64,000 nt of DNA from Clostridia bacterium. Its GTDB lineage: Bacteria; Bacillota; Clostridia; Christensenellales; CAG-138. Below, one piece after another: positions 9,388-64,000 of this stretch (position 1 is its first letter; each line of letters starts with the position of its first letter). The notes beneath the pieces were generated by a model. The model ran no database searches. It was not told the origin of the DNA and was given only the letters and a program-made list of their open reading frames with translations. Made by a program: the position numbers and the translations under genes. Location: assembly GCA_036677445.1 (NCBI GenBank), contig JAVBWI010000004.1, positions 342,786 to 406,785 of the forward strand, in the 5' to 3' direction.

Positions 9388-10897
9388 CGTCTTCTCCTCC
9401 TATTGCCGTTTCCAGCAGTTTTTCCTGCGTAAATTCACATCTTTGCAGCTCGCCTTTCAATCGGCCCTCGTGCAGGACCACGATCCGGTCGGACATCGCA
9501 ATGACCTCAGGAAGCTCGGAGGAGACCATGATAAAGGCGATGCCCTGCCGGGAAAGATCGTTTATAAGGTTGTACAGCTCGCTCTTCGCGCCTACATCCA
9601 CGCCGCGGGTCGGTTCATTGAGTATGAGCACTTTGGGTTCGGCCGCCAGCCATTTGGCAACAACCACCTTCTGCTGGTTTCCGCCGGAGAGTGAATCCAC
9701 CGGCGTCTCCTTGCCAGGGGTCTTTATACCCAGGCGCTCTATCCATTGCGAAACCAGCCGGCTTTCCTTCTTAAAGTTCAGAAGCCTGATTCGGCTGCAT
9801 ATCTTTTGGATCACATTGGCGGAAATATTGACGCCTACCGAATGCAACAAAAACAATCCGGATCCCTTCCGGTCGGAGGGTACATAACCGATACCGTATT
9901 TTTTTGCATCTTTTGGGGAACGGATATCCGCAACCTGGCCGCAGATTTTAATAGTGCCGCTCTTGCGTTTCCTGGCGCCGAATATCATCTCCACCGTTTC
10001 CGTGCGCCCGGCGCCCATCAAGCCGAACAGGCCGACGATTTCGCCGCTGCGTACATGAAAGCTGATATCCTGCACATATTCCGACGAAAGCTTGTTCACT
10101 TCCAGAACGGTTTCGCCGATACATCTGCCATCGCGGCTGGGGTACATTTCCGTTATCTCCCGCCCGACCATCAGCGCAATAAGCTCCCGTTTGCAGGTCT
10201 CGACCGTACGCAGGGACTGGATGCTTTTGCCGTCGCGCATGACCTGCACTTTGTTGGATATTTCAAACACCTCGTCCAAACGGTGCGAGATATAAATAAT
10301 TGCGGTCCCTTCTTCTGCGAGCTGCTTGATGAGACTGAACAGTATGATGATTTCCTCCGCATTGAGCGCGGCGGTAGGCTCGTCCATCACGAGAATCTTC
10401 ATTTTTTTCGAGAGCGCTTTTGCGATCTCTACCATCTGCTTTTCCGCGATGGACAGCGACGATACCGGCGTAAAAGGATCATATCTGTTAAGGCCTACGC
10501 GCGCGAGCAAAACGGCCGTATTTTCCTTAAGTTTTTGGTAATCCACCAGTTTTCCGCCCGCTTTGTACGGCAGATTCCCCATGAAAATATTTTCCGCGAT
10601 GGTAAGGTGATCGGCGCTGTTCAGTTCCTGGTAGATTACGTTGACGCCCATGCGGATGGAATCCCGCGGGTCGGAAATAGAAACCTTTTTGCCTTCAAAA
10701 AAAATTTCGCCCTGATCCGCATGGTATGCGCCGGAAAGGATCTTGATCAGCGTGGATTTCCCCGCACCGTTTTCGCCCAGCAGCGCGAGTATATCTCCTT
10801 TTTCAAGTTCCAAATCAACATTCTGCAGCGCCTTTACCCCCGGAAACGATTTGTAGATTCCTTTCATCAGGAGCGCTTGCTCATTCGCCATGCTCAT
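9380..10897 (-). CDS. Sugar ABC transporter ATP-binding protein (duplicated ATPase, RbsA type)
   Basis: Two nucleotide-binding domains: Walker A GENGAGKST and GLMGAGRTE, signature LSGGNQQK, Walker B ILVMDEPT / VLILNEPT. Confidence 0.9.
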   Translation of the reverse strand: MSMANEQALLMKGIYKSFPGVKALQNVDLELEKGDILALLGENGAGKSTLIKILSGAYHADQGEIFFEGKKVSISDPRDSIRMGVNVIYQELNSADHLTIAENIFMGNLPYKAGGKLVDYQKLKENTAVLLARVGLNRYDPFTPVSSLSIAEKQMVEIAKALSKKMKILVMDEPTAALNAEEIIILFSLIKQLAEEGTAIIYISHRLDEVFEISNKVQVMRDGKSIQSLRTVETCKRELIALMVGREITEMYPSRDGRCIGETVLEVNKLSSEYVQDISFHVRSGEIVGLFGLMGAGRTETVEMIFGARKRKSGTIKICGQVADIRSPKDAKKYGIGYVPSDRKGSGLFLLHSVGVNISANVIQKICSRIRLLNFKKESRLVSQWIERLGIKTPGKETPVDSLSGGNQQKVVVAKWLAAEPKVLILNEPTRGVDVGAKSELYNLINDLSRQGIAFIMVSSELPEVIAMSDRIVVLHEGRLKGELQRCEFTQEKLLETAIGGEDDE

Positions 10898-46481: not shown

Positions 46482-47313
46482 AAATATGTTAAATGGATAT
46501 CTGATGATCATCGGGGGCGCCGAAGATAAGCAGGGCGAACGTTCGATTTTAAGCCATGCGGCGGATATGGTGGCGCGCGATGAAATACTCACCGTGGTTA
46601 CGACTGCCACAAAATACCCCGAAGAGGTCGGAAACGAATATAAGGATGTTTTTTACAGGCTCGGCGTGGATAACGTGGATATCCTCAATATAGACTCACG
46701 CGATGACGCCAATAATGCGGACGTTTGCGAGATCATCCGCAAATCCAAGTGCATCTTTTTTACCGGCGGCGACCAGCTGCGTATCACCAGTATATTAGGC
46801 GGTACGAAGGTGAATAATGAACTCCAGAATCTATATAAAGAAGGCGGCGTCATTATGGGTACCAGCGCAGGCGCATCGGCAATGAGTTCAACAATGATCG
46901 TCCAGGGCAACGACAATGAGCCCGCACGCAAATGCACGCTGAAAATGGCGCCTGGGCTTGGTTTGATCAGCAACTGCATCATCGACCAGCATTTTGACCA
47001 GCGGGGAAGATTCGGACGGCTCCTTTGCGGTATAGCCGAAAACCCGGATGTACTGGGCATAGGCATCGATGAGAATACCGCGATCAAAGTGTTTCCGGAT
47101 ACGCATTTTGAAGTGATCGGCGCAAACTCTGTCACCGTCATAGACGGAAGCACGATACAGAGTTCAAACGTTGCCGAGCTGGAGCCAAATGAACTCCTTG
47201 CGATCATTGGCGTAACGGTACATATTCTTCCCTTTGGATACGGATTCGATATGCAAAACAGAAAAGTCATCAGGCTGAAAAAAGTTTCCGGAGACCAAGA
47301 TGAAGATAATTGA
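46474..47313 (+). CDS. cphB: Cyanophycinase (intracellular type, no signal peptide)
   Basis: IIGGAEDK N-terminus and the catalytic Ser motif GTSAGA. The start overlaps the iadA stop; the alternative ATG is at 46486. Confidence 0.85.
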   Translation: MRENMLNGYLMIIGGAEDKQGERSILSHAADMVARDEILTVVTTATKYPEEVGNEYKDVFYRLGVDNVDILNIDSRDDANNADVCEIIRKSKCIFFTGGDQLRITSILGGTKVNNELQNLYKEGGVIMGTSAGASAMSSTMIVQGNDNEPARKCTLKMAPGLGLISNCIIDQHFDQRGRFGRLLCGIAENPDVLGIGIDENTAIKVFPDTHFEVIGANSVTVIDGSTIQSSNVAELEPNELLAIIGVTVHILPFGYGFDMQNRKVIRLKKVSGDQDEDN

Positions 47314-49888
47314 CGTTTCGATTTTCAAAGGAAGAAATATATACAGCCATTATCCGGTAATCAAGATGATTCTCGATGCTGAAAAGCTCAGCATGACTCC
47401 CACCAAGCAGATCAAGGGATTCAACGAGTGGGTTCTTCAGGAATTTCCGGGCTTAAAAACCAACCACTGCGGTCTCGGGTATGAAGGCGGCTTTTTAGAA
47501 AAGCTCGAAGCCGGAACCTACCTCGCGCATGTCATAGAGCATGTGATACTCGAAATGCAGTATATGGCGGGATATAATGTGGCATTTGGCAAGACCCGCG
47601 TTTTGGACGAGCCTTCAAAATCCTATATCGTGTATGAATACATCAATGAAGTATGCGGCCTGGAATGCGGCAAGGCCGCCATACATATCATAAACTGTTT
47701 TTTAAAGAACAAAAAAGCGAATGTAAAGGACATTCTTGCTTATATTCAGCAGGTTTCAAAAGACGCCGAACTCGGGCCGAGTACCGCCGCGATCTATCAC
47801 GAAGCGCAGCGGCGCGGCATACCCGTCTGCCGAATAGGCCATGAGAGTTTAATTCAGCTTGGATACGGAAAATACCGGCGGATGCAGCAGGCAACGCTGA
47901 CGGATGCTACCTCCTGTATTGCCGTAGATATATCCTCCAATAAGCAATTTACAAAAATGCTGCTGCGTGACAATGGTATCCCCGTGCCGGACGGCAAGCT
48001 TGTATTCAGCGAGATTTCCGCTCTGCTTGCCGCAAAGCAAATCGGTACGCCGGTGGCAATCAAACCCCATAACGGCAACCAGGGCAAGGGCGTGCATCTG
48101 AATCTCAAAAGCCAGCGCGAAATCAAGGCTGCGTTTAAAGACGCATGTTCCCACAGCAATTCTGTGATTGTCGAAAAATTCGTCAGCGGCAAGGATTTTC
48201 GCGTTCTGGTGGTAGGCGACAAGGTCAGCGCTGTTTCAGAGCGCCGCCCCGCCTGTGTCACCGGCGACGGCGTGCATACCATCAGCGAGTTGGTTGACAT
48301 CATCAACCAGGATGAAAATCGCGGAGACCACCACGAAAAACCGCTGACCAAGATTAAGCTTGACACCATTGCGCTCAAGCTGCTAAAACGTGACAAGCTT
48401 ACCCCGGCCTTTGTTCCCGGCAAGGGCGAGATCGTAAAGCTTAGGGAAAACGGCAATTTGAGCACGGGCGGGACCGCGACGGACCGCACGGACGAGATAC
48501 ATCCCGAAAACGCGGAGCTGGCCGTGCGGGCGGCCTCCGTCCTTGGGATCGATATCGCGGGCATTGACTTTGTTACCGAGGATATATCCGCCCCCATCCG
48601 TGAAACAGGCGGGGTGATCGTTGAAGTCAATACCGCGCCGGGCATACGGATGCATTTGTACCCAAGCGAAGGAACGCCCAGAGACGTTGCGAAGGATATC
48701 GTGGAATATCTTTATCCCGGCAATGACGCATTAAATTTCCCTATCGTATCCGTAACGGGCACGAACGGAAAGACAACCACAACAAGGTTGATCGCGCATG
48801 CGCTCGCCTGCTATGGCAAGTCCGTAGGCATGACCAGCACATCCGGCACTTATATCAACGGAAAATGCATTCATAAGGGCGACGATACGGGTGCATTGAG
48901 CGCGAAGGCCGTGCTGGCCGATAAATCGGTCGACGCGGCGGTGCTTGAAACGGCGCGCGGCGGGCTTATCCGCGCCGGCCTGGGGTATGATCTCGCGGAT
49001 GTCGGCGTGATCACAAATATCGCGGACGATCACCTGGGGCTGAACGATATCAATACGCTGGAGGATCTGGCGTTTATCAAATCTCTGGTAGCGGAGGCCG
49101 TGAAGGACACCGGGTACGCGGTTTTAAACGCGGATGACCCGATGACCGGCTATATTCTAAAACGGGTAAAGGCAAACGTGATTCTTTTTGCAAAAGAGTA
49201 TGCAAAAGCAAGAAGCCTATACAGGGATTTTGCGCTTGTATATGTATCCGAAGGCATGATCATGATAGAACATGACAGCGTTACTACATCGATTATCCAT
49301 GTGGATCATATACCCATCACCAAGCACGGCAATATTCCATGCAACGTTGAAAACAGCCTGGCCGCGGTCGCAGCGCTGTACGCGCTTCGTATTCCTGCCG
49401 AAACCATTGCGTTGGGGCTGTCAAGCTTTGCCGATAATGCCGGACGATTTCAACTCCATCGCTTAGGCAATTGCTCCGTACTGCTTGATTATGGGCACAA
49501 CGCCCCCGGATACAAGGCGGTCATCGACGCTTTGCCTTCTTATCAGTCCAAGCGTTTAATCGGCGTCATCGGTATGCCCGGAGACAGGCAGGACTCGGCA
49601 ATGCAAGCCGTAGGCGAACTGTGCGCAAACGCATTCCATAAAATTTATATTAAGGAAGACGCCAATTTGCGCGGCAGAGAGAAGGGCGAAGTCACCGCGC
49701 TCCTATACGCCGCCTTGACAAGCCGCGGTTTCCCCAAGGAAAACATCATGGTATTGGCAGATGAGCTGGACGCATTGAAGCTGGCGGTCAGCGACGCCCA
49801 AAATGGCGATTTGATCGTTGTATTCTATGAAAAGCTGCATCCGCTCACCGAGTATATGCAGCAGTTAGCGGGACAAAACCATCCCTGA
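47300..49888 (+). CDS. cphA: Cyanophycin synthetase
   Basis: 862 aa: an N-terminal CphA domain, an ATP-grasp module, and a Mur-ligase-like module with GTNGKTTT. The start overlaps the cphB stop by 14 nt. Confidence 0.9.
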   Translation: MKIIDVSIFKGRNIYSHYPVIKMILDAEKLSMTPTKQIKGFNEWVLQEFPGLKTNHCGLGYEGGFLEKLEAGTYLAHVIEHVILEMQYMAGYNVAFGKTRVLDEPSKSYIVYEYINEVCGLECGKAAIHIINCFLKNKKANVKDILAYIQQVSKDAELGPSTAAIYHEAQRRGIPVCRIGHESLIQLGYGKYRRMQQATLTDATSCIAVDISSNKQFTKMLLRDNGIPVPDGKLVFSEISALLAAKQIGTPVAIKPHNGNQGKGVHLNLKSQREIKAAFKDACSHSNSVIVEKFVSGKDFRVLVVGDKVSAVSERRPACVTGDGVHTISELVDIINQDENRGDHHEKPLTKIKLDTIALKLLKRDKLTPAFVPGKGEIVKLRENGNLSTGGTATDRTDEIHPENAELAVRAASVLGIDIAGIDFVTEDISAPIRETGGVIVEVNTAPGIRMHLYPSEGTPRDVAKDIVEYLYPGNDALNFPIVSVTGTNGKTTTTRLIAHALACYGKSVGMTSTSGTYINGKCIHKGDDTGALSAKAVLADKSVDAAVLETARGGLIRAGLGYDLADVGVITNIADDHLGLNDINTLEDLAFIKSLVAEAVKDTGYAVLNADDPMTGYILKRVKANVILFAKEYAKARSLYRDFALVYVSEGMIMIEHDSVTTSIIHVDHIPITKHGNIPCNVENSLAAVAALYALRIPAETIALGLSSFADNAGRFQLHRLGNCSVLLDYGHNAPGYKAVIDALPSYQSKRLIGVIGMPGDRQDSAMQAVGELCANAFHKIYIKEDANLRGREKGEVTALLYAALTSRGFPKENIMVLADELDALKLAVSDAQNGDLIVVFYEKLHPLTEYMQQLAGQNHP

Positions 49889-50085: not shown

Positions 50086-52206
50086 TTATTGACCGGCCGG
50101 CATGATTCTTTGCAGTTCGCGAACGATATCTTCAATTCGATAGGGTTTTTGTACAGCGCCGCTAAAACCGTATGCATGATAATTGGACAATACGGGATTA
50201 TTGGAATAACCGCTCGCAACAATAGCAACAACATCGGGATTCATATCTTTCATGCATTTCATTGCCTCTTTACCGCCCATACCCCCCGGAATTGTGAGGT
50301 CTAATATAACGGCATCATAAGGTTTCCCCATCTTCATGGAATTTCTGTAAAGATCAAGCCCGTCAGCCCCGTCATGAACGGCATCCGCCATATAGCCATA
50401 CATTTTTAACAAATCAGCCAAGGAATCGGCTATGGATTCCTGATCCTCAATCAGTAATATCCGTCCATTACCCGGCTGAATTTCTTTTCCATTTGTTTGG
50501 ACTTCAGTTTTTTTACGAGATGCCGGAAGATAAATATGAAAAGCCGTGCCCTTTTCCTCTTCCGACTCAACCGTAATATAACCGCCATGCTTTTTTATAA
50601 TGGAATACGAAGTTGCAAGCCCAAGTCCGCTTCCTTTTTCTTTTGTGGTGAAATAGGGATCGAATATTTTGCTTAAGTTCTCGTTTGGGATTCCAATCCC
50701 CTGATCGATAACGGATAATTTTACATAACTTCCATGACTTATAGGCAGATTGTCGTTTGAGCCGGCAAAAAAATTATCAGCCGATATCCTTATAACGCCG
50801 CCGTTGGGCATAGCCTGATCAGCGTTAATAACCATATTGTTTATAACCTGGCTTATTTGCCCCTGGTCTATTTCCACAACATAGAGATCAGGGGCAAAAG
50901 AAAATTCGCACTTTACTTTGGAGCCCCGGAGGGCAAACCCGGCCGTATCCGATATCAGATCCGGCAATAAGGATGCTTTTTTTACCGGGCTTCCGCCTTT
51001 TGAAAAGGTAAGCAGTTGCCGCGTGAGCGATTCAGCGTTATGGCAGGTCTTTTCCACCATGTTCAGATATGGATAAACGCTTTCGTCGAGTTTGTATTTC
51101 TTTCTTATTAACTGCATGACGTTTAGTATCACTGTCAATTCATTATTGAAATCATGCGCAATTCCTCCGGCCAGAACTCCCAGGGATTCAAGCTTCTGCA
51201 CCTTTAATAATTCCATGTTGGCGCGTTCAAGTTCCGCGGTGCGCCTCGCAACAAGCTCCTCAAGATACTCCCCGCTTTTTTTCATTTGTTCCAGCAACAA
51301 AATATTCTCATAGGCTATCGCGGCCTGCATGCCCAATGTCATGGTTATCTCCTCATCCACATCGGAGAACCGCATACAATCCAGTTTATCCTTCAGGCAA
51401 ATCCAGCCGTAAACGCAAGTGGGAGAGGTAAACGGAACCGCCATGAGCGATTCCACTGATATGCCAGTTTCGCAGGTAAAAGAAGACGCCGACGGCCATC
51501 GGTACGGCAAGCGCCGGGTAACCACGCGATGTAGGATTTCTTCCGGGGGAAGCAAACCATCCGGACCGGAAGCAGCAGGCTCACCCTGGGCGTGGCTGAT
51601 AAAATACTCTTTTCCGCCATCCCTTTCAATCATCAGTACGGAATGCCTGCAATTGAAAAATTCGAGCAGGATTCGGGGAATACAGCACAGGAGTTTTTGC
51701 GGATCACGCTGTGCTACCATACTGTAGCTCAGATCCATCAGCACAGAAAGCTGAAGTCCTCCGATCTGCGAAAAAGACGATTCTGCTGGATTTTGACGGG
51801 GCACGTCCGTCACAGTCTGCAGATCTGTTAAGGCAGACGGAGCTCCCAGCAGCTCACTGACCGTCTTCAGAATAAACTCCGGATCGGAAGGCTTTGGAAT
51901 AACACGGCAGGTTCCATATGTTTCGTCCAAACGGATACTTTCCGGATAACGGCAGGAAGCGGTATAAAAAATGACGGGCGTCTTCTTCAGCGTCGATTCC
52001 AACCGCAGCTTGCGGACAAATTCCAGTCCGTCAATGGAAGGCAAAAGTATATCGCTTATAATAAGATCCGGCCGCTCATTGTATGCAAGCGTCAACGCCC
52101 CGGTACCCTCAACCGCCTCTAGTACATGATGTCCCGCGTAACTAAGCAGGCTAGCAAGCATTTGCCGGCTCATTGCGTGGTCTTCGACAATAAGGATAGT
52201 TGCCAT
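50086..52206 (-). CDS. Hybrid sensor histidine kinase (REC-GAF-HisKA-HATPase-REC)
   Basis: N-terminal receiver (DLIISDILLPSIDG), H-box GIAHDFNNELT, ATPase G-boxes (DQGIGIP, GSGLGLA), C-terminal receiver (AVILDLTIPGGMGG). Confidence 0.85.
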   Translation of the reverse strand: MATILIVEDHAMSRQMLASLLSYAGHHVLEAVEGTGALTLAYNERPDLIISDILLPSIDGLEFVRKLRLESTLKKTPVIFYTASCRYPESIRLDETYGTCRVIPKPSDPEFILKTVSELLGAPSALTDLQTVTDVPRQNPAESSFSQIGGLQLSVLMDLSYSMVAQRDPQKLLCCIPRILLEFFNCRHSVLMIERDGGKEYFISHAQGEPAASGPDGLLPPEEILHRVVTRRLPYRWPSASSFTCETGISVESLMAVPFTSPTCVYGWICLKDKLDCMRFSDVDEEITMTLGMQAAIAYENILLLEQMKKSGEYLEELVARRTAELERANMELLKVQKLESLGVLAGGIAHDFNNELTVILNVMQLIRKKYKLDESVYPYLNMVEKTCHNAESLTRQLLTFSKGGSPVKKASLLPDLISDTAGFALRGSKVKCEFSFAPDLYVVEIDQGQISQVINNMVINADQAMPNGGVIRISADNFFAGSNDNLPISHGSYVKLSVIDQGIGIPNENLSKIFDPYFTTKEKGSGLGLATSYSIIKKHGGYITVESEEEKGTAFHIYLPASRKKTEVQTNGKEIQPGNGRILLIEDQESIADSLADLLKMYGYMADAVHDGADGLDLYRNSMKMGKPYDAVILDLTIPGGMGGKEAMKCMKDMNPDVVAIVASGYSNNPVLSNYHAYGFSGAVQKPYRIEDIVRELQRIMPAGQ

Positions 52207-52212
52207 TGCATC

Positions 52213-52596
52213 CTACTCTTTTCTTCTGTTTGTTTGAATAAACGATTCAATCTGCCTGACGAATACTTCGGGTATAATCGGCTTGCTGATGTAATTATCA
52301 AATCCTGCGGCAAGTACCTTTTCCCTGTCTCCTACCATTGCGAGAGCGGTAACGGCAATAAGCGGGATATTTTTGAGTTGAGGATCATTTTTTATATAAC
52401 GCGCCACCCCGTAGCCATCCACCCTGGGAAGATGTATATCGCAAATGATCAGATCGGCCCTTTCCTGATGCGCCAGCCGTATTCCCTCTTCCCCATCCGC
52501 CGCCATAAGGACTGTATAGTTGAAAACCTGCAGCAGATAGGTAATGAGCTCAAGGTTGATGGAGTTATCCTCTATAACCAATATTCGTTCATGCAA
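52213..52596 (-). CDS. Single-domain response regulator (receiver only)
   Basis: 127 aa; [31 protein letters not shown]. All conserved receiver residues are present. Confidence 0.9.
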
Positions 52597-54229
52597 TATT
52601 TGTCAGCTCCTTATCTTTTCCCAGTACCAGCTGAAAGACGCTACCTTTGCCGAACTCGCTTTGAAATTCAATATGCCCGCCAAGCAATTCCGCCAGTTTT
52701 TTGCTTAGATGAAGGCCTAATCCCGTACCTTCATGCCGTCGGGCGCTGCTTGAATCCACTTGCGTAAAAGCCTGAAAAAGCTTGTCCTGATCCTCGGGTT
52801 TAATGCCTATTCCGGTATCCGATACGCTGAATTGCACCTGTGCCAGGCTATCGTCACACCGTAACTCTAACCGGACTTCTCCCTTTTCGGTAAACTTGAT
52901 CGCATTGTTGGCGAGATTGATCAGGATCTGGCTTACAGCCCGGCGGTCTGTATGCAGGATGATATCCTCATCCGGCATATTGCAGATTAATTTGAGGTAT
53001 TTATCATCCGCAATCGGACGAAGCGTATCGGCAATATCCTTTAGAACGCTTTTGCAGGATACCGGCTCCGGGTTTACCTCAACCTTGCCGGATTCTATCT
53101 TGGAAAGATCCAGAAGGTCGTTGATAAGCAAAAGCAAATGCTTGGCGCTTGCAGATATATTCTGGAGCTGCTTTTCCTGTTCGGCGTTAAGCGGTCCGGG
53201 CAGTTTCATCAAAAGCGTTCCGGTAAAGCCGATAATGGCATTGAGCGGCGTGCGCAATTCATGACTCATATTGGCAAGGAATCTGTCTTTGGCCAGCAAT
53301 GCATTTTCCAACTCGACATTTTTTTCCTGCAGCCTGTCCTCAGCCAGTTTCCGCTGCTCAATCTCCTGTTTCAGCTGTTTATTGGTTGCCTCCAAATCGG
53401 CCGTTCGTTCCGCCACCCTCTTCTCCATCTCGCCGTATGCCCTGTGCAGTTTTACCTCCGCCATATCACGCTCCGTCACATCGCGGAAAACTAAAATTAC
53501 GCCTATAATTTTTCCCCGGTCATCCTGAATAGGCGCGGCGCTGTCATCGATAGGAATTTCCCTTCCGTTCTTGGCAAGAAGCAATGTATGGTTGGCCAGG
53601 CCGACAACCGCCCCTTCCTGCATGACTCTTTCCGCAGGATTTTCAACGGTCAGGCGCGTATTCTTGTTTATAATCCTGAATACATCCGTCAGCTTCTCAT
53701 GCTGTGCCTCCTCTATCTTCCATCCCGTCAGTTCCTCTGCAACCATATTCATGAAGGTAACCCGGCCTTTGTCATCCGTAGCGATGACGGCGTCCCCGAT
53801 ACTTCTGAGTGTTGTCGAAAACCATTCTTCACTTTCTTTCAGCTTTTTTTCCATCTTGTGCTTATACAATGCCATGTCGATGGAGATATCCAGTTCGCGC
53901 TCCTTAAAGGGCTTGACGATATATCCATAAGGATCGGTTATTTTGGCGCGCTGCACCGTATCTTCATCCGCATAAGCGGTCAGATAAATCACAGGGATTC
54001 CATAGCTGGACATGATTTGCTTTGCAGCCCAAACCCCGTCGACCTCTCCGTGAAGCATGATGTCCATAAGCACCAGGTCAAAACTTATCTCCTCCGTCAG
54101 CTTGATCGCTTCTTCCCCGGATAATGCGATAACAGGGCAGGAATATCCTAAATTCATCAGCCTATGCTGAATATCCAGCGCCTCAATGCCTTCATCCTCA
54201 ACAATTAATATCTTGGCGTCAGTCATCAT
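52589..54229 (-). CDS. Hybrid sensor histidine kinase (REC-PAS-HisKA-HATPase)
   Basis: Receiver ([14 protein letters not shown]), a PAS region, H-box [11 protein letters not shown], ATPase motifs (DTGIGI, GTGLGL). Confidence 0.85.
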
Positions 54230-54240
54230 ACCGTCTCCTT

Positions 54241-57200
54241 TTATTTCATCGCTTCAAATAAAATGGTAAATCGGGTTCCGTTGTTTCTATCGATATAAAT
54301 TTCACCCTTGAGCTGCCTTACCAATATATTGACTATTTTAAGCCCCAGCGAATTGCTGTTTTGTATGATAAAATCGTCCGGCAGACCTATGCCGTTGTCA
54401 CCCACAACCAGCTTATACCTGTTTCCCGCGCCATGACGCAGATCGATTTGTATTTCTTTCTTCCGGTCAGGGCATCCGCCGGAAGCGGAAAAAGCGTATT
54501 TTAAGGCATTTGAAACAAGCTCGTTCATAATCAGAGCGCAGGGGATTATCGTATCGATGTTTAGCGTAATATCGTCTACGTATATTTTAGGGCTTATACT
54601 CCTCTCGCTAATACCATAAGACAAAAACAGATTGGCGATTAGGTTTTGAATATATTCAGGCAGATTGATCCTCGCCAGCGATTCGGACTGATACAGTTTT
54701 TCATGAATAAGCGCCATCGTGAAAATCCGGTTCTTGCTCTCCTTTAGTAACCCGATAACCAGTTCATCCGTAGTATAAAGCGATTGAAGGTTCAGCATGC
54801 TGTGAATGATCTGGAGATTGTTTTTTACGCGGTGATGGATTTCCTTAAGAAGCACCTCTTTTTCATGCAGGGCTGAACGCAAATGCGCCTCGCTGTCGTA
54901 TAGCTCCTCATTGGCAGCCGCAAGCTCGGCCGTCCGTTTCATCACGCGCTGTTCGAGTTCCCGGTTGAGCTTTTGTATTTCCGCCTCGGCCTTGTTGCGG
55001 TCGGTAATATCGATGCCCATCTCCAGAATAAGATTGGAGCCATCCGCGTCTACAAACGGGAAATCAAAAACGTCATAATCGCGGCCGTCCGGCCCGGTCC
55101 ATTTCCAGCTGCAGGGGGATTTTGTTTCCAAAACGCCGTAGGTTTGGCAATTCTCACATGGCTTATCGTGACCAAACAGGAATTCGAAGCAGCGCTTCCC
55201 ATGCGCTTCGCCAAAGCGCTCCCGAAATACGCGGTTGGCAAAGGGCGCGTGATAATCCGGGGTTAAGAGAACCACATATACCGGGAGTATCTCTAAAATT
55301 TCATTGAACCGCCGCTGTTCGACTATTACCTGCTCCTCGGCCTGCTTGCGGCGGGTAATATCTTCCTCCAATAGCTGATTGGTTCTGGCCAGTTCCGCAG
55401 TTCTTTCCAGAACCCGCATCTCCAGCTCCGCCTTTGCGCCCCGCAGCGCCTCCTCCGCCCGTTTCATCTCGTCCACCAACCGGGAATTTTCAAGAGAAAT
55501 TGCCGCCTGTGATGTCAGCAATTCCGTTAATTGCGTCTTTTCCGATGTAAAAACGGCGTCCGACAGACGGTTTTCCAGGTATAACACGCCTATCTTCTTG
55601 GACTGTTTGATAACCGGCAGGCAAAGAACAGATTTTAGCCGCATATGCCGGACCTCCGGATTATCCTTAAATATTCCCTCCTGCGCGGCGTTATTCAGTA
55701 CCAGCCGCTCTCCCGTCCTGTAAACGTAACGGGCAATGGCTTTGCAGATATCCCGCGTATCTTCCAGTTTTCTGTTGACCGTCCGTATGATTTGCTTTTT
55801 TACGACATGGCTTTCCGCATAGACAAACAGGCCATCGTTTTCCTGTATCAACAAATATCCGTGCTGTGCGCCGGAACTCTCGATCACCACATTCATAATC
55901 TTTTTTAACAGAGTATCCTGCTCTATTTCGGCGGCAATCGCAATAGACGATTTCATCAGATAATCAATATCCAGCGGAGGAAGGATATTGGGTGCGGCCG
56001 TCTCCAATTCCAATTGCGGAACGACCGCTTTCTCTTCCTTGAAATATTCAGGATATTTATTGATAAGATTTGATTCCTTGCGTTCCGCCCCACACGCCCG
56101 GTATAACCTGGCTGCCTCGGCAAAGTAAACCCTCTGCGTGCATTGGCCGGACTTCAACAGCAGTTCTCCAAGGCACTCATTGAGATGCCCTTCCAGAAAC
56201 GTATATTTTTGTTCATGTGCGATATTGATCGCGTCAAGATATAAGCTTCTGGCCTCTTTGAAGCTGCCAGCCACCCTTTCCCGTTCTGCGTATAAAAAGG
56301 CAAGGTAAGGTTTCAATAAGGGGCCTAAAGCCGCCCAGGTTTCAATTTTTTCAACAACAGGCCGGATTTCTGCTATAAGCTCATCAAAAGCACCGCCGGA
56401 TTCCTGTTCGAACAATTTCAGCTTGTTTAAAACCAAAAAGACATGCCATTGCCTTTTTAGAACGTTATCGGTAAGGCCGGATAAATATCGCTTTACCTCC
56501 TCGAGATACCGCCCCGCTTCTTCATATTCTCCAAAATAGTAATGGGATATCGCCATATGGACGCAGTAGCTGCCGGCCGAAGCAATATGATTATCCTTTT
56601 CCCACAAACGAAGCTTTTCATCCATTGATACATGGACGCAGTTCTTTTTCATGTGCCCGACCCAGCCGGCTTGCATCGCCTCGGCAAGTCTGGCTGAAAA
56701 TGCTAAATTGAATCGGTTCGAAAATTGAAGGCACTCGTTTGCATAGTCTTCAATTGCGGACATATCGGCGCCCTGCACCTGGAGATTCCACATTAACGGT
56801 CCGTAAGAAAGCCCCGCATTATACAGGTCGCCGCAGTTTTTCCCGCATTGGATCGACTTTAAGCAATACTCCACAATCTGCTTCGGATGGCTTCTTGAGT
56901 GCATATTGCACCATACGATACCGTTCATGCCCCTGGTTGCGCCAAAAGTATTCGGATATTTTGCGGAGAGATCGCGCGCAAGGTCCTCAAACCTGAATGC
57001 CTGTTCAAAGTCCCCCTGCTCTCCCAATAGAAGCCCCATGATGCTGAAGGAATATATGACCGATTCATCCATACCACCCGAGAGGCAATGCTGGGTAGAC
57101 TGCGCAGCGGAAAGATAAAGCTGCGGTACAAGGCCGGACATATACAGGTCGGGTATCAGCTCACTGTAGAAGGCAAGCTCAATTTTGCTCTTCCGTTCAT

Positions 57201-59856
57201 TTGTAAAAGGCATATTCAGGATCGCCTCATAAATATCGAAATCCTTTGCGAATATGTCGGATATCAGTCTCTCCCTTTTTCTTTGCGCTTTAACTGGGTC
57301 TTCCGGGATAGTCTTTCCAAAAATGCTGAGTCCTTTGTTGGCAGTCTCGATTGCTTTTATAAAATTGCCGATGGAAGACAACGAGGTCGTTTGTTCCGCC
57401 AGGCATTCTCCCTTGTCCAGGTCGGTTATTGCTTGATCCAACAACAGATTGAGCAACCTTTCGGAATTTGTGTAGTTCCCGCACATGAGCTCGGTTTTTG
57501 CCGCTTTTTTCAATATACTGAAGGTGCGCTGATAATGGGTTCCATTCCAGCAATCGTCCGGCAACAGCGATCTGCTGATTTGGAAATACTCATTTGCCGC
57601 TTCTGTAGCAAGCGTGTCAAGCGCCTTGTTGCCGGCATAGTAGTTTAAGTCCGACAGAAAATAGGCTTGCTGCCCGATTACTTTTTCTTCTTTCCCCATA
57701 TTAAGGTGTGAAACGATCGCAAAGAGGTTTTCTGCTTTTTCCAGCTCCATATCCGCCGGAATCGTTGTGAGGAGATAGTTTCCTACTTTTCGGTGTATCT
57801 GCCGCCGGTCCTCTGCCGGAATTAAGGATAATACCGCTTCCTGCACTCGATCATGTATGAATTGCAGCTGGCCCTTGTTCTCTATCAGCAGTCCCTGGCT
57901 TAGAACTGGTTTTAGCAGCTCATACAGCTCAAATAGAGACATTCCATTGATAGCGGAAATATCATTGGGTGAAAACGAATTCCCCATACACGCGCAATAT
58001 TTGAGCAAACCTGTCAAGCCCGGTGCGAGCTTCTGAATTTTAGCGCTAAAAAGCGCAACTACCGTAGTCGGCATATGCGATTGATTAACTTTGCCAACGT
58101 CCCAGCACCATTGCCTTTTTTCATCGAAAAAAAGCAGGCCTTCGTTGTAGAGATACGAGAGGCTTTCACTGACAAAAAGCGGGTTGCCTTCGCTTAGGGT
58201 GCTGATAAAATCCGACAATGTTTTGGTTTTTGAGCGGGGTGAATCGAGGATATAGGAAACCATCTCATGACAATGATGCGGTTTCAAAGATTCTAACCTG
58301 ATTTCCGTTAAAGGCCAGCCGCTGATCTTTGCATTTGTGATAAGCTTTGAGAGTGGGTGACTTGAATCAACCTCGTTATGACGGTATGCTCCCAGCAGGA
58401 AAAAGTAGGGATGATCCCTGTAATTGGCCATTATATTTGATAAAAAGTCAAAGGAGGCCATGTCGCACCATTGAAGATCGTCTATAAACAACGTCAATGG
58501 GTTTTCTTCACTGGCCAGACAAGTCAGAAACCGGTCAAAAAGATCATGATACCGGTTCAATGCCTCGACCGGCGGAAGCGCTTTTACATCGGGCTGCGGG
58601 CCAATCAGTATTTCCAATTCCGGGATAGCGTCAGTCAATACCCTGGCATTATTTCCTACTGATTGTAAGATTCTTTTTTTCCAGTTTGCAGCCCGCTCAT
58701 TGCTTTCGGTCAGAAAAGTTCTGATCAAGTTTTTAAGAGCCTGTATCAAGGAGCTATAGGGAATATTTTTTTGATAGATATCGAACTTTCCAGATGTAAA
58801 ATAGCCCTTATGCTTGACAATAGGATTTTGCAACTCCTGTATCAGGCGGGTCTTTCCTATGCCGGACAACCCGGATATCAGCAGCGAACGGAATTCACCC
58901 TTGACCACCTGCTCGTATTCCTGAAGTATAGTCCCGGCCTCTTTATCCCGGCCTACCATTTTGGAAACAAAGGGTATTTTTTGAATGCTTACGCATTTTT
59001 CTAAAAGAAATTCGCGTATTGCCCCGGTTTTTGCGTACTCAGCCTGGCATCGCATTAGGTCGGTTAAGAGCCCGCCGGCGCTTTGATAGCGTTTTTCCGG
59101 CTGCTTTATGATTAGTTTCGCAATGATTTTGCTTAATGCAACGGGGATATCCGGGTTGTGTATATGAACCTGAGGGGCTTCTTTTGCAAGATGTGAATGA
59201 ATCAATTCCAGCGGATCATCCGAATAAAACGGCAATTCGCCTGTCAATATCTCATAAAACACAATGCCCAGTGAATATAGGTCGGAAGAGAAAACAACCC
59301 GATGATTGATGCGTCCCGTTTGCTCCGGGGATGTATATGATAACGTATTTCTGATAAAGGAACGATCATAGATAAAATGGCTGACATCCCTGACATCCAC
59401 GGTGCTGATAAAATCTATTAATCTGATATCCGATATATTTGAACCGACAAGGATATTGTGCGGTTTAATTCCGCCATGGATGATTCCGGCTTCATGAATT
59501 TTCTCTAAAGCCTGTGTGAGTCTGTAAGCTAAAATAAAAAAATCGCTTAACGGTAATTGAGGATGCTCCTTTATAAATACATCAAGCGAAATCCCATTAA
59601 AATACTCCTGCGTTATAAAGCACATGCCATCTTTTACTTCAAAGGAATCCGGTGTAATCAGCAGTGGGTTTTTTATAACCTTAAGGTGCTCAATCTTCTG
59701 ATCAAACTGGGCTTTTTTATATCCGGAAAAATTTATTGATTTTAATACTTTAAGAACAAGTGTCTGATTCGGATTTGCTTGATGATATACCTTGAAGACG
59801 GCAGTGTGTGGAACCTCGGCTACCTTTTCTACTATTTCATAATTTAATATTTTCAT
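54241..59856 (-). CDS. 1871-aa multidomain signalling protein: degenerate Ser/Thr-kinase-like domain, AAA (AAA_16/STAND-like) ATPase, TPR-like region, GAF, PAS, HisKA_2-type histidine kinase
   Basis: Kinase-like N-terminus ([30 protein letters not shown]); Walker A GLSGIGKT and Walker [11 protein letters not shown]; GAF ([20 protein letters not shown]); PAS with CENCQ; H-box [13 protein letters not shown]; ATPase [20 protein letters not shown]. Confidence 0.85.
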
Positions 59857-59947: not shown

Positions 59948-60742
59948 CTATGCGACACCTTCCGGAAAACTGGCCATTTCGCGGCCATGTTTCATTAACA
60001 GCCTGTCCGCCACAAGCGCTATGAATTCTCCATTGGTGGGTTTATCGTACTTTGAATAGATTTTGCAGTCAAAGAATTGGTTAATATTTTCAATCTTGCC
60101 GCGTTCCCATGCAACCTCTATTGCATGGCGGATGCCTCGCTCTACTTTACTTGACGTTGTTGAGAACTGTTTCGCGATACAGGGGTATAGCTCTTTCGTC
60201 AGGTGGTTAATGAGTTCGGGGTTATTGAATACCATTCGAATTCCTTCCCGGAGATAATGATACCCTTTAATATGTGCCGGGATTCCGGTAGCGAGAAAAA
60301 TGAGCGTGATTTCTTCGCTAAGCGTTTTCGGCGGCTGAGGCGAGGCAGACTTACTTGTCTCCGGCTGCGCCGTTGTAAGCATATCCAGCATCCTCTTGTA
60401 CAGCGTTTCCGGCTCTATAGGTTTCGCCATGTAATATCTGGCGCCTAGTGTGAACGCGTAACGGATCATACTCTCGTTGCGGATAGCGGAGACCACGATC
60501 ACCGCCGGCTGTTCGCCCCCAATCCTTCTGAGATTCTCAAGTATGCCCAGCCCATCCAGCTTCGGCAAAATTAGACCCATCAGCAGGGCGTCGTACCGCT
60601 TTAAACGCATTTTCTCAAGGGCTTGACGTCCATCCGTAGCAATATCCACCAACTGTACTTTTTCCTGCGCAGAAAGGTACTTGTATACGAAATCACGGTA
60701 CTGCGGATCGTCATCCACGAGCAGAACAGCATACTTAGACAT
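59948..60742 (-). CDS. Spo0A-family transcription factor with an atypical receiver (Gly at the phospho-acceptor position)
   Basis: The C-terminal domain is near-canonical Spo0A (GIPAHIKGYHYLREGI, SKVERGIRHAIEVAW, KPTNGEFIALVADRL). The receiver aligns gap-free with B. subtilis Spo0A but reads LLMGLILPKLDG where Spo0A has LVLDIIMPHLDG. The start is taken at the ATG at 60742, after AAGGAG. Confidence 0.85.
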   Translation of the reverse strand: MSKYAVLLVDDDPQYRDFVYKYLSAQEKVQLVDIATDGRQALEKMRLKRYDALLMGLILPKLDGLGILENLRRIGGEQPAVIVVSAIRNESMIRYAFTLGARYYMAKPIEPETLYKRMLDMLTTAQPETSKSASPQPPKTLSEEITLIFLATGIPAHIKGYHYLREGIRMVFNNPELINHLTKELYPCIAKQFSTTSSKVERGIRHAIEVAWERGKIENINQFFDCKIYSKYDKPTNGEFIALVADRLLMKHGREMASFPEGVA

Positions 60743-60796: not shown

Positions 60797-60917
60797 TTCG
60801 TCACGAAAACCGAAAAAATAATAATTCAATTTGTCAGTATATAATAGTATAATAGCATGGTAAAATTACCGTTACAAGTTAGAATGTGTCAGGTAATTTG
60901 TCGAAAAATAGGTCGAA
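60797..60917. promoter_or_regulatory. 0A-box-like heptamers in the divergent promoter region
   Basis: TGACGAA on the minus strand (60797-60803), TGTCGAA (60899-60905) and GGTCGAA (60911-60917) on the plus strand. The consensus 0A box is TGNCGAA. Confidence 0.4.
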
Positions 60918-61071: not shown

Positions 61072-61584
61072 ATGAAAGAAAAAACCTGCTGTTTTGCCGC
61101 ACAAAACCGGCGGATTATATCCGACGAAGATAATCCCGGTTGCATTAGGCTTATTCTTAAAATTACTCTGGAGATCGAGTTAATGATAAAAAAAGGATGC
61201 AATACATTCATAACCGGAATGGATTGGAGGTCGGAGCTTTGGTTCGCAGAAGCAGTACTTGATTTGAAACGTGCTTATCCACAAAAAAGTATTAATCTTA
61301 TCGTCGTTCAGTATGCGGGGCAAGCCTCACGATGGAACAAATATTATCTGGATCGTTATAAACGCGTACTCTTGCACGCCGATGATAAGGTAACATTAGG
61401 GGCAGACTATTATAACGGTTATATGCAGCAGTTAAATCAATATATGATAAGGCATTCGGCTCACATGATAGCTTTATTTGCCGGCAGGAAGGAACCTGTT
61501 ATAGCTTCCGATCCGGATACAGTGATTATAAACCCAAACGACTTTTTCGTGAAAAAGCCGCGCATTTTTTCAATCGTAAAATAG
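61072..61584 (+). CDS. DUF1273 / SLOG-family protein (YpsA-like)
   Basis: 170 aa; KTCCF..., CNTFITGMDWRSELWFAEAVLDLKRAYP and LNQYMIRHSAHMIALF resemble the YpsA/DUF1273 family. The usual TGHR-type N-terminal motif reads FAAQNRR here. Confidence 0.6.
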   Translation: MKEKTCCFAAQNRRIISDEDNPGCIRLILKITLEIELMIKKGCNTFITGMDWRSELWFAEAVLDLKRAYPQKSINLIVVQYAGQASRWNKYYLDRYKRVLLHADDKVTLGADYYNGYMQQLNQYMIRHSAHMIALFAGRKEPVIASDPDTVIINPNDFFVKKPRIFSIVK

Positions 61585-61629: not shown

Positions 61630-62013
61630 GTGTCACATCGAATTTTGATTGCCGATGATAACAAGGACTTTACCAGTATTTTTAAAGACTACATTTCCTT
61701 ATATAATGATATCGAACTTGTTGGAATAGCGGAAAATGGCTGCAAGACATATGAAATGCTGTTGCAGGAAAAGCCTGACCTGTTAATTTTGGATCTTGTT
61801 ATGCCTGATATGGATGGAATCGAAGTCCTTCGCCGGATTCGTGACATGGACGGCGTCAAACCCGCAATATTCGTGATTTCCGCGCTTAGCAACGATGCTA
61901 TCACCCGTGAGGCTCTGACGCTGGGAGCTTGTGCTTATTTCATTAAGCCAATCAACCTTGAATCTATCGTCTCTCGAATACGCGCAGTTATGCAAACCAC
62001 GTCACAAGTTTGA
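61630..62013 (+). CDS. Stand-alone Spo0A-type receiver domain protein (no DNA-binding domain)
   Basis: GTG start. The 127-aa product aligns gap-free with the Spo0A receiver (ILIADDNKDF, ELVGIAENG, PDLLILDLVMPDMDGIEVL, ISALS, YFIKP) and stops right after the receiver. Confidence 0.8.
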   Translation: MSHRILIADDNKDFTSIFKDYISLYNDIELVGIAENGCKTYEMLLQEKPDLLILDLVMPDMDGIEVLRRIRDMDGVKPAIFVISALSNDAITREALTLGACAYFIKPINLESIVSRIRAVMQTTSQV

Positions 62014-62353: not shown

Positions 62354-62641
62354 CTATTTATATACCGTAGTATAACCTTCCATAGAATGGCGATGGCCAT
62401 CGTTATAAGTGGTTAACCCTCTGTAATGGTGATCATGCCCGCCATTTACATTTTCCTCGGGCCCGGTAGTAAATTCAAACCCGTGTAAATGGTTATCATT
62501 AATTGTAGTACGCCCATTGATGCGATGCGTATGTCCTTTTATATTCGGGCTGGCGCTCGTCTCACCGTCATAATAGTGAATATGGCCGTCATTTAAGGTT
62601 GTTTGGCCTGTAAATCTATGCGTATGCAGTCTCATCGACAT
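62354..62641 (-). CDS. ymaF: YmaF-family His-rich repeat protein
   Basis: The start is taken at the ATG at 62641, after GAGGTG. Four repeats of H-x-H...G-x-T...D/N-x-H-x-H/Y (HTHRFTGQTTLNDGHIHY, HTHRINGRTTINDNHLHG, HDHHYRGLTTYNDGHRHS). Confidence 0.75.
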   Translation of the reverse strand: MSMRLHTHRFTGQTTLNDGHIHYYDGETSASPNIKGHTHRINGRTTINDNHLHGFEFTTGPEENVNGGHDHHYRGLTTYNDGHRHSMEGYTTVYK

Positions 62642-62877
62642 AAGAATCACCTCTTATTGACCATTTTATGTAAACGCTTTTTTTGTGTGCCTGAACGTGC
62701 ATTGCATATAAGAATATTAAGCGTGTCTTTTATACAATATCTTGTGGTGTGAGGATTCGGAAAAATTTAGAAAAAACGCCCACTTCGCGTTAATGTGGCA
62801 AAAGGCGGGCATTTTACTTATATAAGTAATACTGTTTTCACAGATTCAGTTTATATGAAAGCGAGCCTCGATTCTAC

Positions 62878-63260: not shown

Positions 63261-64000
63261 TTACTTCACGTAGGAGGCGGCCTCCCGACCGGCGATACGG
63301 CCGCTGCCAAAGGCGTACATCATAGTGGTGCCGCAGATGTCGTAGTAAGGCTTGTGGTACATGCTGCCGCCATCCTGACCCGCCACATAGAGGCCAGGGA
63401 TCGGCTTGTTGGATGAATCGAGCGCCTGCAGCTTTTCGTTCACCTTCACGCCACCCAGCGTACCAAAGCAACCAGGGAGGAATTTCACTGCATAGAACGG
63501 CCCCTCCGCAATAGGGATCAGGTATACGTCGCGCTTTAAGAGATCCGTATCTTCGCCTGCGGCGACCAACTCGTTGTAGCGTGCCACGGTGGTGGAAAGA
63601 TCCGCAAGGCCGGTTTCGTCTTGGAGCGTCTTGATGCTGTTCGCCTTCCAAACGAAGCCGTTTTCAATGCCGAATCCCATCTCGCGCGGGAGCTCGCTCA
63701 ACGGCGAATTTGCCCCAGCGAACATGGGCGGCACGCCGGAGGTGGAGCCGTAGAAGCTCAGCCGCTCCAACTGCGGGGCCTGCTTTTCCGCCTCGTCTGC
63801 GGGCAGTAACTCCTTGAGGCCGCCCGCTACCAGCATATCGTATGTCTTCTGATCGAAAATGACATAGTACGCTCCCATGGAGGAAGCGGCTGCGCCGCCC
63901 TGATTGAGCGGCTGCTCGCGGAACAGGGCCTCGTTGAAGTAGCGATCTCCGTTGGAGTTGACCATCAGTAGCGCTGCTACCGAGAGCAGGTTGATATGGA
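63261..64000 (-). CDS. FAD-dependent oxidoreductase (fumarate-reductase/flavocytochrome-c flavoprotein family), C-terminal part; 5' end outside the window
   Basis: The frame stays open to the window edge. The C-terminal motif GLYVAGQDGGSMYH...GSGRIAGREAA is typical of this family. Confidence 0.75.
   Translation of the reverse strand, partial: HINLLSVAALLMVNSNGDRYFNEALFREQPLNQGGAAASSMGAYYVIFDQKTYDMLVAGGLKELLPADEAEKQAPQLERLSFYGSTSGVPPMFAGANSPLSELPREMGFGIENGFVWKANSIKTLQDETGLADLSTTVARYNELVAAGEDTDLLKRDVYLIPIAEGPFYAVKFLPGCFGTLGGVKVNEKLQALDSSNKPIPGLYVAGQDGGSMYHKPYYDICGTTMMYAFGSGRIAGREAASYVK

Follow-up and report, generated by a model that had tools for sequence, protein, structure and literature searches.

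Spo0A is the textbook developmental master regulator that is activated by phosphorylation. Laboratory mutants in which its phospho-acceptor is replaced (D56A or D56N) are inactive, and sad67, a mutant from which the receiver has been deleted, is constitutively active. A recent study reports that every Spo0A protein examined so far is regulated by phosphorylation. In C. difficile, Spo0A with the D56A substitution is no longer phosphorylated and dimerises less, and sporulation drops by a factor of more than 1000 (bioRxiv 10.1101/2022.02.07.479450). Receivers without a phosphorylatable Asp, together with pseudo-receivers, represent a known class of atypical response regulators (PMC4395418, PMC12632262). 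Glu is the commonest substitution in Asp-less receivers, at 26% (PMC4395418), and, according to a 2025 review, pseudo-receivers have in many cases lost the Pro at D+4, the Gly at D+8 and the small residue at T+1 (PMC12632262). Amongst the Clostridiales, ten genomes have been found to carry two copies of spo0A and Anaerostipes hadrus carries three (bioRxiv 10.1101/2022.02.25.481979), and the presence of Spo0A in non-spore-formers is also documented (bioRxiv 10.1101/2022.02.25.481979; PMC3533761). Here, we describe a gene at 59948-60742 of a 64,000-nucleotide stretch of DNA from a Clostridia bacterium (the window), which encodes a Spo0A-family protein with Gly in the position occupied by the phospho-acceptor Asp56 in canonical Spo0A. 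The protein is a natural counterpart of the laboratory D56 substitutions and, in contrast with sad67, its receiver is present. We put at roughly 70% the probability that this is a genuine Asp-less Spo0A-family transcription factor, expressed, maintained by selection and equipped with a pseudo-receiver, which is controlled by means other than its own phosphorylation. The features of the gene itself are as follows.

59948-60742, minus strand: Asp-less Spo0A-family gene encoding 264 aa (receiver at residues 6-117, linker at about 126-138, Spo0A_C at 146-248)
60575-60577, minus strand: codon 56, GGT, giving Gly at the phospho-acceptor position (ACC on the plus strand)
60849-60877, minus strand: promoter-like site, TTGTAA, 17 nt, TG-TATTAT, sigma-70-like with an extended -10 (a consensus match only)
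60899-60917, plus strand: 0A box TGTCGAA (60899-60905), then a one-mismatch GGTCGAA (60911-60917)

The Spo0A-like open reading frame (ORF) starts on the minus strand with an ATG at 60742, just before which lies AAGGAG, and stops at 59948. A longer ORF can be read from a TTG at 60829, but the true start of the Spo0A-like gene is probably the ATG at 60742. Pfam assigns residues 6-117 of the product to Response_reg (PF00072; E 3.1e-21) and residues 146-248 to Spo0A_C (PF08769; E 1.4e-38, over the full length of the profile), and this two-domain architecture is the one seen in canonical Spo0A (TIGR02875; PF00072 plus PF08769). Against the NCBIfam model TIGR02875, 'sporulation transcription factor Spo0A', the protein scores 255.5 bits, which is above the curated NCBI equivalog cut-off of 200 bits. 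The reference structures for Spo0A cover the receiver (1dz3 and 1qmp) and the DNA-binding domain (1fc3 and 1lq1) separately; the C-domain of the window protein matches 1lq1 and 1fc3 (both E about 1e-37), and its helix-turn-helix and the recognition-helix residues E-R-x-I-R-H are present. In an AlphaFold2 model of the protein (mean pLDDT 88.3) the receiver has the (beta/alpha)5 fold at a pLDDT above 90, with G56 placed directly after the strand formed by residues 52-55, whilst the linker (126-138) is disordered and the C-domain is helical. The DNA-binding half had originally been described as almost canonical. The strings quoted for it at the time (GIPAHIKGYHYLREGI, SKVERGIRHAIEVAW and KPTNGEFIALVAD) are all present in the translation, as is LLMGLILPKLDG, but that description passed over an unusual divergence of the C-domain, which is considered below. 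By its sequence, the protein is a member of the Spo0A family that would not be the functional equivalent of a phosphorylation-activated Spo0A.

In a gap-free HMMER alignment of residues 6-119 with the receiver of G. stearothermophilus Spo0A (1dz3; 66 bits), G56 sits opposite the phospho-acceptor Asp of that structure (...allmGlilpkldgl / ...illlDiimphldgl). The original prediction of a Gly at residue 56, with its GGT codon at 60577..60575 (ACC on the plus strand), was therefore correct, as was its reading of the receiver motifs VDDD (V9, D10, D11 and D12), VVSAI (S85) and MAKP (K107). The acidic pair D10 and D11, together with S85 and K107, is likewise present in the subfamily relatives introduced below. 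If the switch residues are defined after PMC12632262, the window receiver also retains A86 (T+1), Y104 (K-3), P60 (D+4) and G64 (D+8), so that, whereas many pseudo-receivers lose the hallmarks at D+4, D+8 and T+1, this one keeps all but the Asp. GGT was said to be a single transition away from GAT, and the closest Asp-bearing relatives (the core group) do use GAT at this codon; P0023, the nearest sister of the window protein, uses GAA, and the two replacement codons are each one step from GAT. A domain that is read as a receiver by PF00072, yet has no phosphorylatable Asp, is an Asp-less receiver as this class has been defined (PMC12632262, PMC4395418), and the same absence characterises RitR, ChxR, HP1043, GlnR and FrzS. 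With Gly56, the uptake of a phosphoryl group at the canonical site would not be possible and, since the receiver lacks a phosphorylatable Asp, some form of control other than Asp phosphorylation would be required. This supports one of the options offered at the outset, namely that of a genuine atypical Spo0A-family protein which is not phosphorylated at the canonical site. The intact state of the other receiver residues may mean either that the Asp was lost not very long ago in each lineage, or that the conformational switch now serves a non-covalent input.

The replacement of Asp by Gly at position 56 is a stable inherited feature, and can be attributed neither to a sequencing error nor to recent damage to the gene. 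The same 264-aa protein is found in both the NCBI and the Logan assemblies, and a 99%-identical variant (F18L), recovered from runs SRR27176488 and SRR27176485, has G56 and a gene neighbourhood that is alike. This variant belongs to a second strain, which shares about 96% nucleotide identity with the first over 12 kb. A sequencing or assembly error at 60576, masking a true GAT codon, had been entertained and would need to alter one base only; given that G56 occurs in independent assemblies, in different runs and in a second strain, this explanation is excluded and we regard it as effectively refuted. Between the two strains, the Spo0A-like gene differs at six synonymous sites and one non-synonymous site. 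Set against a neutral expectation of about three non-synonymous changes for each synonymous one, our own binomial estimate for this ratio is p of about 0.002 and, although the sample of strains is small, it is consistent with purifying selection on the gene. A recent inactivating mutation had also been put forward, but this finds no support given the 6:1 synonymous bias, the absence of the Asp in four subfamily lineages and the conservation of a promoter with its 0A box.

Our comparison set comprised the 120 best database matches and 80 loci from GTDB species-representative genomes. Within it, the window protein falls, at 54-69% identity, in a Spo0A clade from uncultured organisms, represented by metagenome-assembled genomes (MAGs) labelled Oscillospiraceae, Christensenellaceae, Eubacteriales or Clostridia. 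A search with P0023 yielded two further relatives, P0358 and P0359, and these three proteins make up a subfamily with the window protein (P0001), in which residue 56 is Gly once and Glu three times, Glu being the residue most often seen in Asp-less receivers generally. A metagenome scan for closer relatives returned none above 60% identity. The members of the subfamily share derived residues at positions that are near-invariant elsewhere (C97F, K144E, I181L, A203G/D, Y226C, N232Y, K247R and E251K), with A203G/D located in the recognition helix. In neighbour-joining (NJ) bootstrap analysis (500 replicates) the subfamily is recovered at 100%, and as sister to the Asp-bearing core group (P0002-P0013 and P0017) at 93-96%. 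A G/A group, consisting of P0014, P0015, P0018 and P0021 in the bootstrap set, with P0022 alongside them in an earlier NJ tree, and of P0024, is distinct from the subfamily. A single origin of all the Gly forms was considered and rejected, as a clade of the window subfamily and the G/A group appears in 0-4% of the bootstrap replicates; from the separate groupings in the tree it follows that this clade has seen a minimum of three independent losses of the Asp.

The subfamily also stands apart in its output domain. Whilst the canonical C-domain is near-invariant, that of the window protein shares just 76% identity with the Asp-bearing core, compared with 85-93% for all other members of the clade, even those with more distant receivers. 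Thirteen of its substitutions fall at positions which are conserved in at least 93% of relatives, where most of the members compared have between 0 and 4 such changes, P0024 has 9 and P0023 has 28. Among them are A203G, within the recognition helix, and G225D/Y226C, in the helix after it, and the altered positions extend to a region which we take, from work on B. subtilis, to be used for contact with sigma-A. Many of the changes are common to lineages with no more than 54-61% identity to the window protein, and the pattern therefore resembles altered constraint more than it does decay.

The promoter region upstream of the gene is conserved. The 0A box, which reads TTCGACA in the orientation of the gene, lies 21 nt upstream of the -35 element, and the window promoter aligns with the extended -10 (ATGnTAnAAT) of its relatives. 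The P0023 promoter is homologous to that of the window, with the -10 region ACCATGnTATTATACTATTATA common to both loci, and three D-type genes (L087, L089 and L094) and one G-type gene (L084) are preceded by an identical 0A box, set at identical spacing from -35 and extended -10 elements that are themselves similar. Over a set of 86 loci, the 300 nt that precede spo0A genes show a 16-fold enrichment of strict 0A boxes; canonical spo0A loci have a 0A box upstream of their own gene and the window gene is no different in this respect. We infer that the gene is transcribed from an ancestral, probably autoregulated, spo0A promoter.

Loss of the Asp extends well beyond the window and its nearest relatives. 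In the scan of GTDB species, 10 of the 80 loci lack the Asp and nine of these are in the clade, where they represent 9 of 32 loci (eight with Glu and one with Ala). Glu is also found in 11 of 44 clade loci on metagenome contigs, several of which come from human-gut assemblies. We further examined cluster representatives of the Spo0A family, taken as the best 150 of the 50%-identity clusters in a library of 1.8 billion proteins; 145 of them have a receiver, and 22 of these are without Asp (8 Glu, 7 Asn, 4 Gly, 2 Ser and 1 Gln). In several of the Asp-less clusters the members number in the tens to hundreds and lie on long contigs. The repeated loss of the phospho-acceptor, to Gly, Ala, Glu or Asn, in the Spo0A of uncultured Clostridia is apparently a wider and undescribed pattern. 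A Spo0A_C output joined to an Asp-less receiver is absent from the texts of PMC4395418, in which Spo0A features only as laboratory mutants, and PMC12632262, and the spo0A section of bioRxiv 10.1101/2022.02.25.481979 makes no mention of a missing phospho-acceptor. The literature searched, the coverage of which is incomplete, yielded no account of an Asp-less Spo0A in nature, so that this amounts to absence of evidence only. It is the recurrent and conserved loss of the phospho-acceptor in the archetypal phosphorylation-switch family, more than this one gene, that may come as a surprise to specialists in sporulation or two-component systems. The recurrence was overlooked by the original prediction, as were the divergence of the C-domain and the Asp-bearing stand-alone receiver encoded nearby.

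Some further features of these Asp-less forms, and of the wider family, were seen in the course of the analysis. In the Glu-type relatives (for example L015, L022, L024 and L028; P0071 and P0116) a Thr nearly always precedes the Glu (..ITELIMP..), and in the main Glu group the second residue of the acidic pocket is altered as well (ADSN/ADGN). The Glu-type P0116 is recorded on 894 contigs, one of them of 2.6 Mb, and human-gut metagenome contigs often carry Glu forms like these (L113-L119, L127 and L128). The MAG ADurb.Bin248 (MWBW01) contains two clade-type Spo0A genes, L021 and L024. One of these, on a 1.2-kb contig, encodes Asp and the other encodes Glu; the bin is either mixed or holds genuine paralogues. 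In a Clostridiales MAG, a spo0A of the canonical type with spoIVB linkage (L073, about 10001-10744) has Asn at the phospho-acceptor position (PDVLILNSLLPHLDG). Four other proteins of 394-454 aa (P0163, P0168, P0174 and P0180) have three to four separate stretches that match the Spo0A profile, all on the C-domain, and appear to be tandem Spo0A_C repeats; no receiver aligned in P0163, P0174 and P0180, the three that were checked.

The genes on either side of the Asp-less gene provide its candidate partners and are arranged as follows.

50086-54229, minus strand: three tightly packed genes, for a receiver-PAS-HisKA-HATPase protein (546 aa), a receiver (127 aa) and a receiver-HisKA-HATPase-receiver protein (706 aa)
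54241-59856, minus strand: 1871-aa protein, 92 bp downstream of the Spo0A-like gene, with a kinase-like domain, AAA_16, TPR, GAF and a HisKA_2/HATPase histidine kinase
61072-61584, plus strand: gene of the YpsA/SLOG family, ahead of RR127 and diverging from the Spo0A-like gene, an arrangement kept in the second strain
61630-62013, plus strand: RR127, a stand-alone receiver of 127 aa with its Asp intact (LLILDLVMPDMDG), a candidate partner

No terminator-like site was found in the 92-bp gap between the Spo0A-like gene and that for the 1871-aa protein. The Asp-less Spo0A is probably co-transcribed with the kinase cluster, and would be the sole DNA-binding protein of this apparent operon; the receivers of the cluster all have their Asp. 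The kinase-like domain that occupies the N-terminal 270 or so residues of the 1871-aa protein has HGGIKPHN where PknB has HRDVKPAN, and DFI in place of DFG, and is predicted to be a pseudokinase. Within the operon, this is a second instance in which a catalytic or acceptor Asp has given way to Gly. Phosphorylation on Ser/Thr by this adjoining domain was considered as an alternative switch and then downgraded, both for these active-site replacements (HGG for HRD and DFI for DFG) and because neither Gly56 nor its neighbour Met55 can be phosphorylated. We also considered the kinase cluster as a conserved partner of the Asp-less protein and rejected this, since the cluster is seen only in the window species and adjoins none of the relatives.

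The genomic context had initially been used to argue that the gene is a paralogue, on the grounds that it lies by a kinase cluster rather than by spoIVB and recN, but neither part of this argument withstands the comparison with relatives. A cluster confined to the window species says little on the matter, and the lack of spoIVB/recN linkage, whilst it does set the gene apart from canonical spo0A, is a property of the whole clade. The order recN-spoIVB-spo0A is found in most of the more distant, canonical loci (37-44% identity), whereas none of the clade members at 54-69% identity, including those that bear the Asp, has a spoIVB-type gene upstream. The nearest relatives have in common an upstream 182-aa/HD-domain gene, from which the neighbours in the window differ.

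RR127 is about 40% identical to Spo0A of the Peptococcaceae type and 33% identical to its Asp-less neighbour. A homologue of it is encoded on an ENA metagenome contig (L092, 3104-6969) along with a PAS-PAS-HisKA kinase, a 248-aa Spo0A-like protein and another receiver. The 248-aa protein has its Asp intact and a strongly diverged C-domain (IPNYIQGFSFLREI..., AIRYAIQVAY), and this locus is another Spo0A-like side family tied to the same kind of small receiver.

If the window protein is an Asp-less transcription factor of the kind proposed here, then the normal switch, in which a His kinase or phosphorelay leads to Asp56~P, dimerisation and DNA binding, would be inoperable. The protein most likely still binds 0A-box DNA and autoregulates, given that the core and recognition-helix residues of Spo0A_C have been kept and that a 0A box stands at a conserved position relative to the promoter. 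The function of this small and fast-evolving subfamily would thus have changed rather than been lost, with activity probably set by the abundance of the protein and by its partners, and not by its being phosphorylated. Candidates for such partners are encoded alongside, in the form of the Asp-bearing stand-alone RR127 and the histidine-kinase/receiver cascade, which is probably co-transcribed. Since D56A is crippling in C. difficile Spo0A, and yet the natural protein appears to be conserved under selection, compensating features or another role would be needed, and a conserved Asp-less form would have to be constitutive, partner-activated or negative in its action. A number of points weigh against this interpretation and need to be considered alongside it. 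All of the other residues related to phosphorylation have been kept, which would not be expected if phosphorylation had long been unused. The test for selection between strains is based on seven differences, and the long branch and the changes in the DNA-binding domain could partly reflect relaxed constraint. The number of TGTCGAA sites across the 64-kb window is at chance (6 found compared with 6.6 expected), and therefore only the position of the box is informative. Lastly, what the data show directly are the sequence features and their conservation, the purifying selection, the subfamily and the homology of the promoter, whereas it is an inference that the protein binds DNA, regulates its own gene, acts without being phosphorylated and responds to partners.

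Several other explanations may be offered for the same data. The Asp-less copy could act as an antagonist of a canonical, Asp-bearing spo0A carried by the same genome, competing for 0A boxes, forming dead heterodimers with Spo0A~P or titrating the kinases, and would in this way damp or delay Spo0A-dependent programmes. We consider this possible, if on balance unlikely. The combination of a long branch, rapid change on the DNA-binding and activation surfaces and a receiver that has stayed near the Asp-bearing core is typical of a duplicate, and the departure of the window neighbours from the conserved upstream arrangement of the nearest relatives points in the same direction. Paralogous spo0A genes were found in 11 of 118 Spo0A-positive genomes (bioRxiv 10.1101/2022.02.25.481979) and, like those extra family members in Clostridiales, the window gene is of clostridial origin and lies outside the canonical context. 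However, no second Spo0A_C was detected by tblastn within the 64-kb window, where there were receiver-level matches only, and the retention of the ancestral promoter is equally compatible with orthology; the closest Asp-bearing proteins (P0002, P0003, P0004, P0005 and P0008) all come from other samples, and nothing is concluded from them. More doubtful, in our view, is a split response regulator, in which RR127 would take its phosphate from the co-encoded kinases and, by pairing with the receiver that lacks the Asp, activate the Spo0A-like protein in trans. RR127 does fit 1dz3 better than the receiver of the Asp-less protein itself (97 compared with 66 bits), other stand-alone receivers form a small family with it (P0122-P0129), its gene and the Spo0A-like gene are divergent neighbours in both strains, and the allosteric switch residues kept in the Asp-less receiver would suit such a pairing. 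Heterodimers of atypical regulators also have a precedent in BldM-WhiI of Streptomyces. The L092 locus can be read either way, as it places an RR127 homologue beside a PAS histidine kinase and a Spo0A-like gene, but that Spo0A-like gene has its own Asp. Elsewhere, no Spo0A-like gene lies within 8 kb of P0129, a homologue of RR127. The matching database entries of P0125, another RR127 homologue, and P0358 (both from Logan, with 2 contigs, the longest of 4317 bp) suggest that the two may share a contig, but this is circumstantial. We are similarly sceptical of the broader proposition that, given such a split regulator, a sizeable share of the Spo0A proteins of uncultured gut Clostridia (with Gly, Ala, Glu or Asn at the phospho-site, amongst them the Glu forms common in human-gut metagenomes) would work without direct phosphorylation; if true, this would overturn the view of every Spo0A as a phosphorylation switch.

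Christensenella-like relatives are described as non-spore-forming, and the window gene might then be the sole spo0A of a lineage which has lost sporulation, with the change from Asp to Gly just one of several degenerative changes in a future pseudogene. We think this very improbable. A codon one transition away from the GAT of close relatives and 13 substitutions at otherwise conserved positions would fit with decay, as would the frequency of Spo0A in non-spore-formers (bioRxiv 10.1101/2022.02.25.481979). Against this, the reading frame is intact and the differences between strains are mostly synonymous, the derived substitutions have been kept across the four lineages of the subfamily, and both the promoter with its 0A box and the remaining active-site and fold-critical residues are conserved.

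These distinctions matter in practice, as annotation pipelines and genome-based predictors of sporulation take any match to Spo0A to be a functional switch. If the Asp-less proteins are active, then they define a phosphorylation-independent branch of Spo0A signalling and provide natural material for studying the control of pseudo-receivers, which is still an open question (PMC12632262). Should they instead be inactive or antagonistic, then the presence of 'spo0A' in such genomes is no sign of competence for sporulation.

With regard to sporulation itself, no sporulation genes were recognised among the genes scanned in the 64-kb window. SipL is a SpoIVA-interacting protein of clostridial sporulation, and a 500-aa protein with a weak match to it is encoded next to dnaA and upstream of the Asp-bearing close relative P0008 (L178, 2203-3705), which hints that some of the close relatives belong to spore-formers. 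Further from the Spo0A-like gene, the interval between a BcrAD/BadFG-type gene and the small receiver is occupied by genes for a TetR regulator and an FMN_bind/FAD_binding_2 flavoprotein (63261-64000 of the window, minus strand, and beyond). This stretch is absent from that position in the second strain, representing an indel of about 3.6 kb (L001 4776-7482 compared with L082). A 98-aa ORF of the YmaF family with His-rich repeats (GHIH, GHTH, NHLH, GHDHH and GHRH) is found at 62354-62650 on the minus strand, and was left uncalled by the gene caller in the matching Logan contig. Past the kinase cluster, at 47300-49888 on the plus strand, is an 862-aa cyanophycin-synthetase-like gene, the Pfam families of which were taken from the identical gene of L082.

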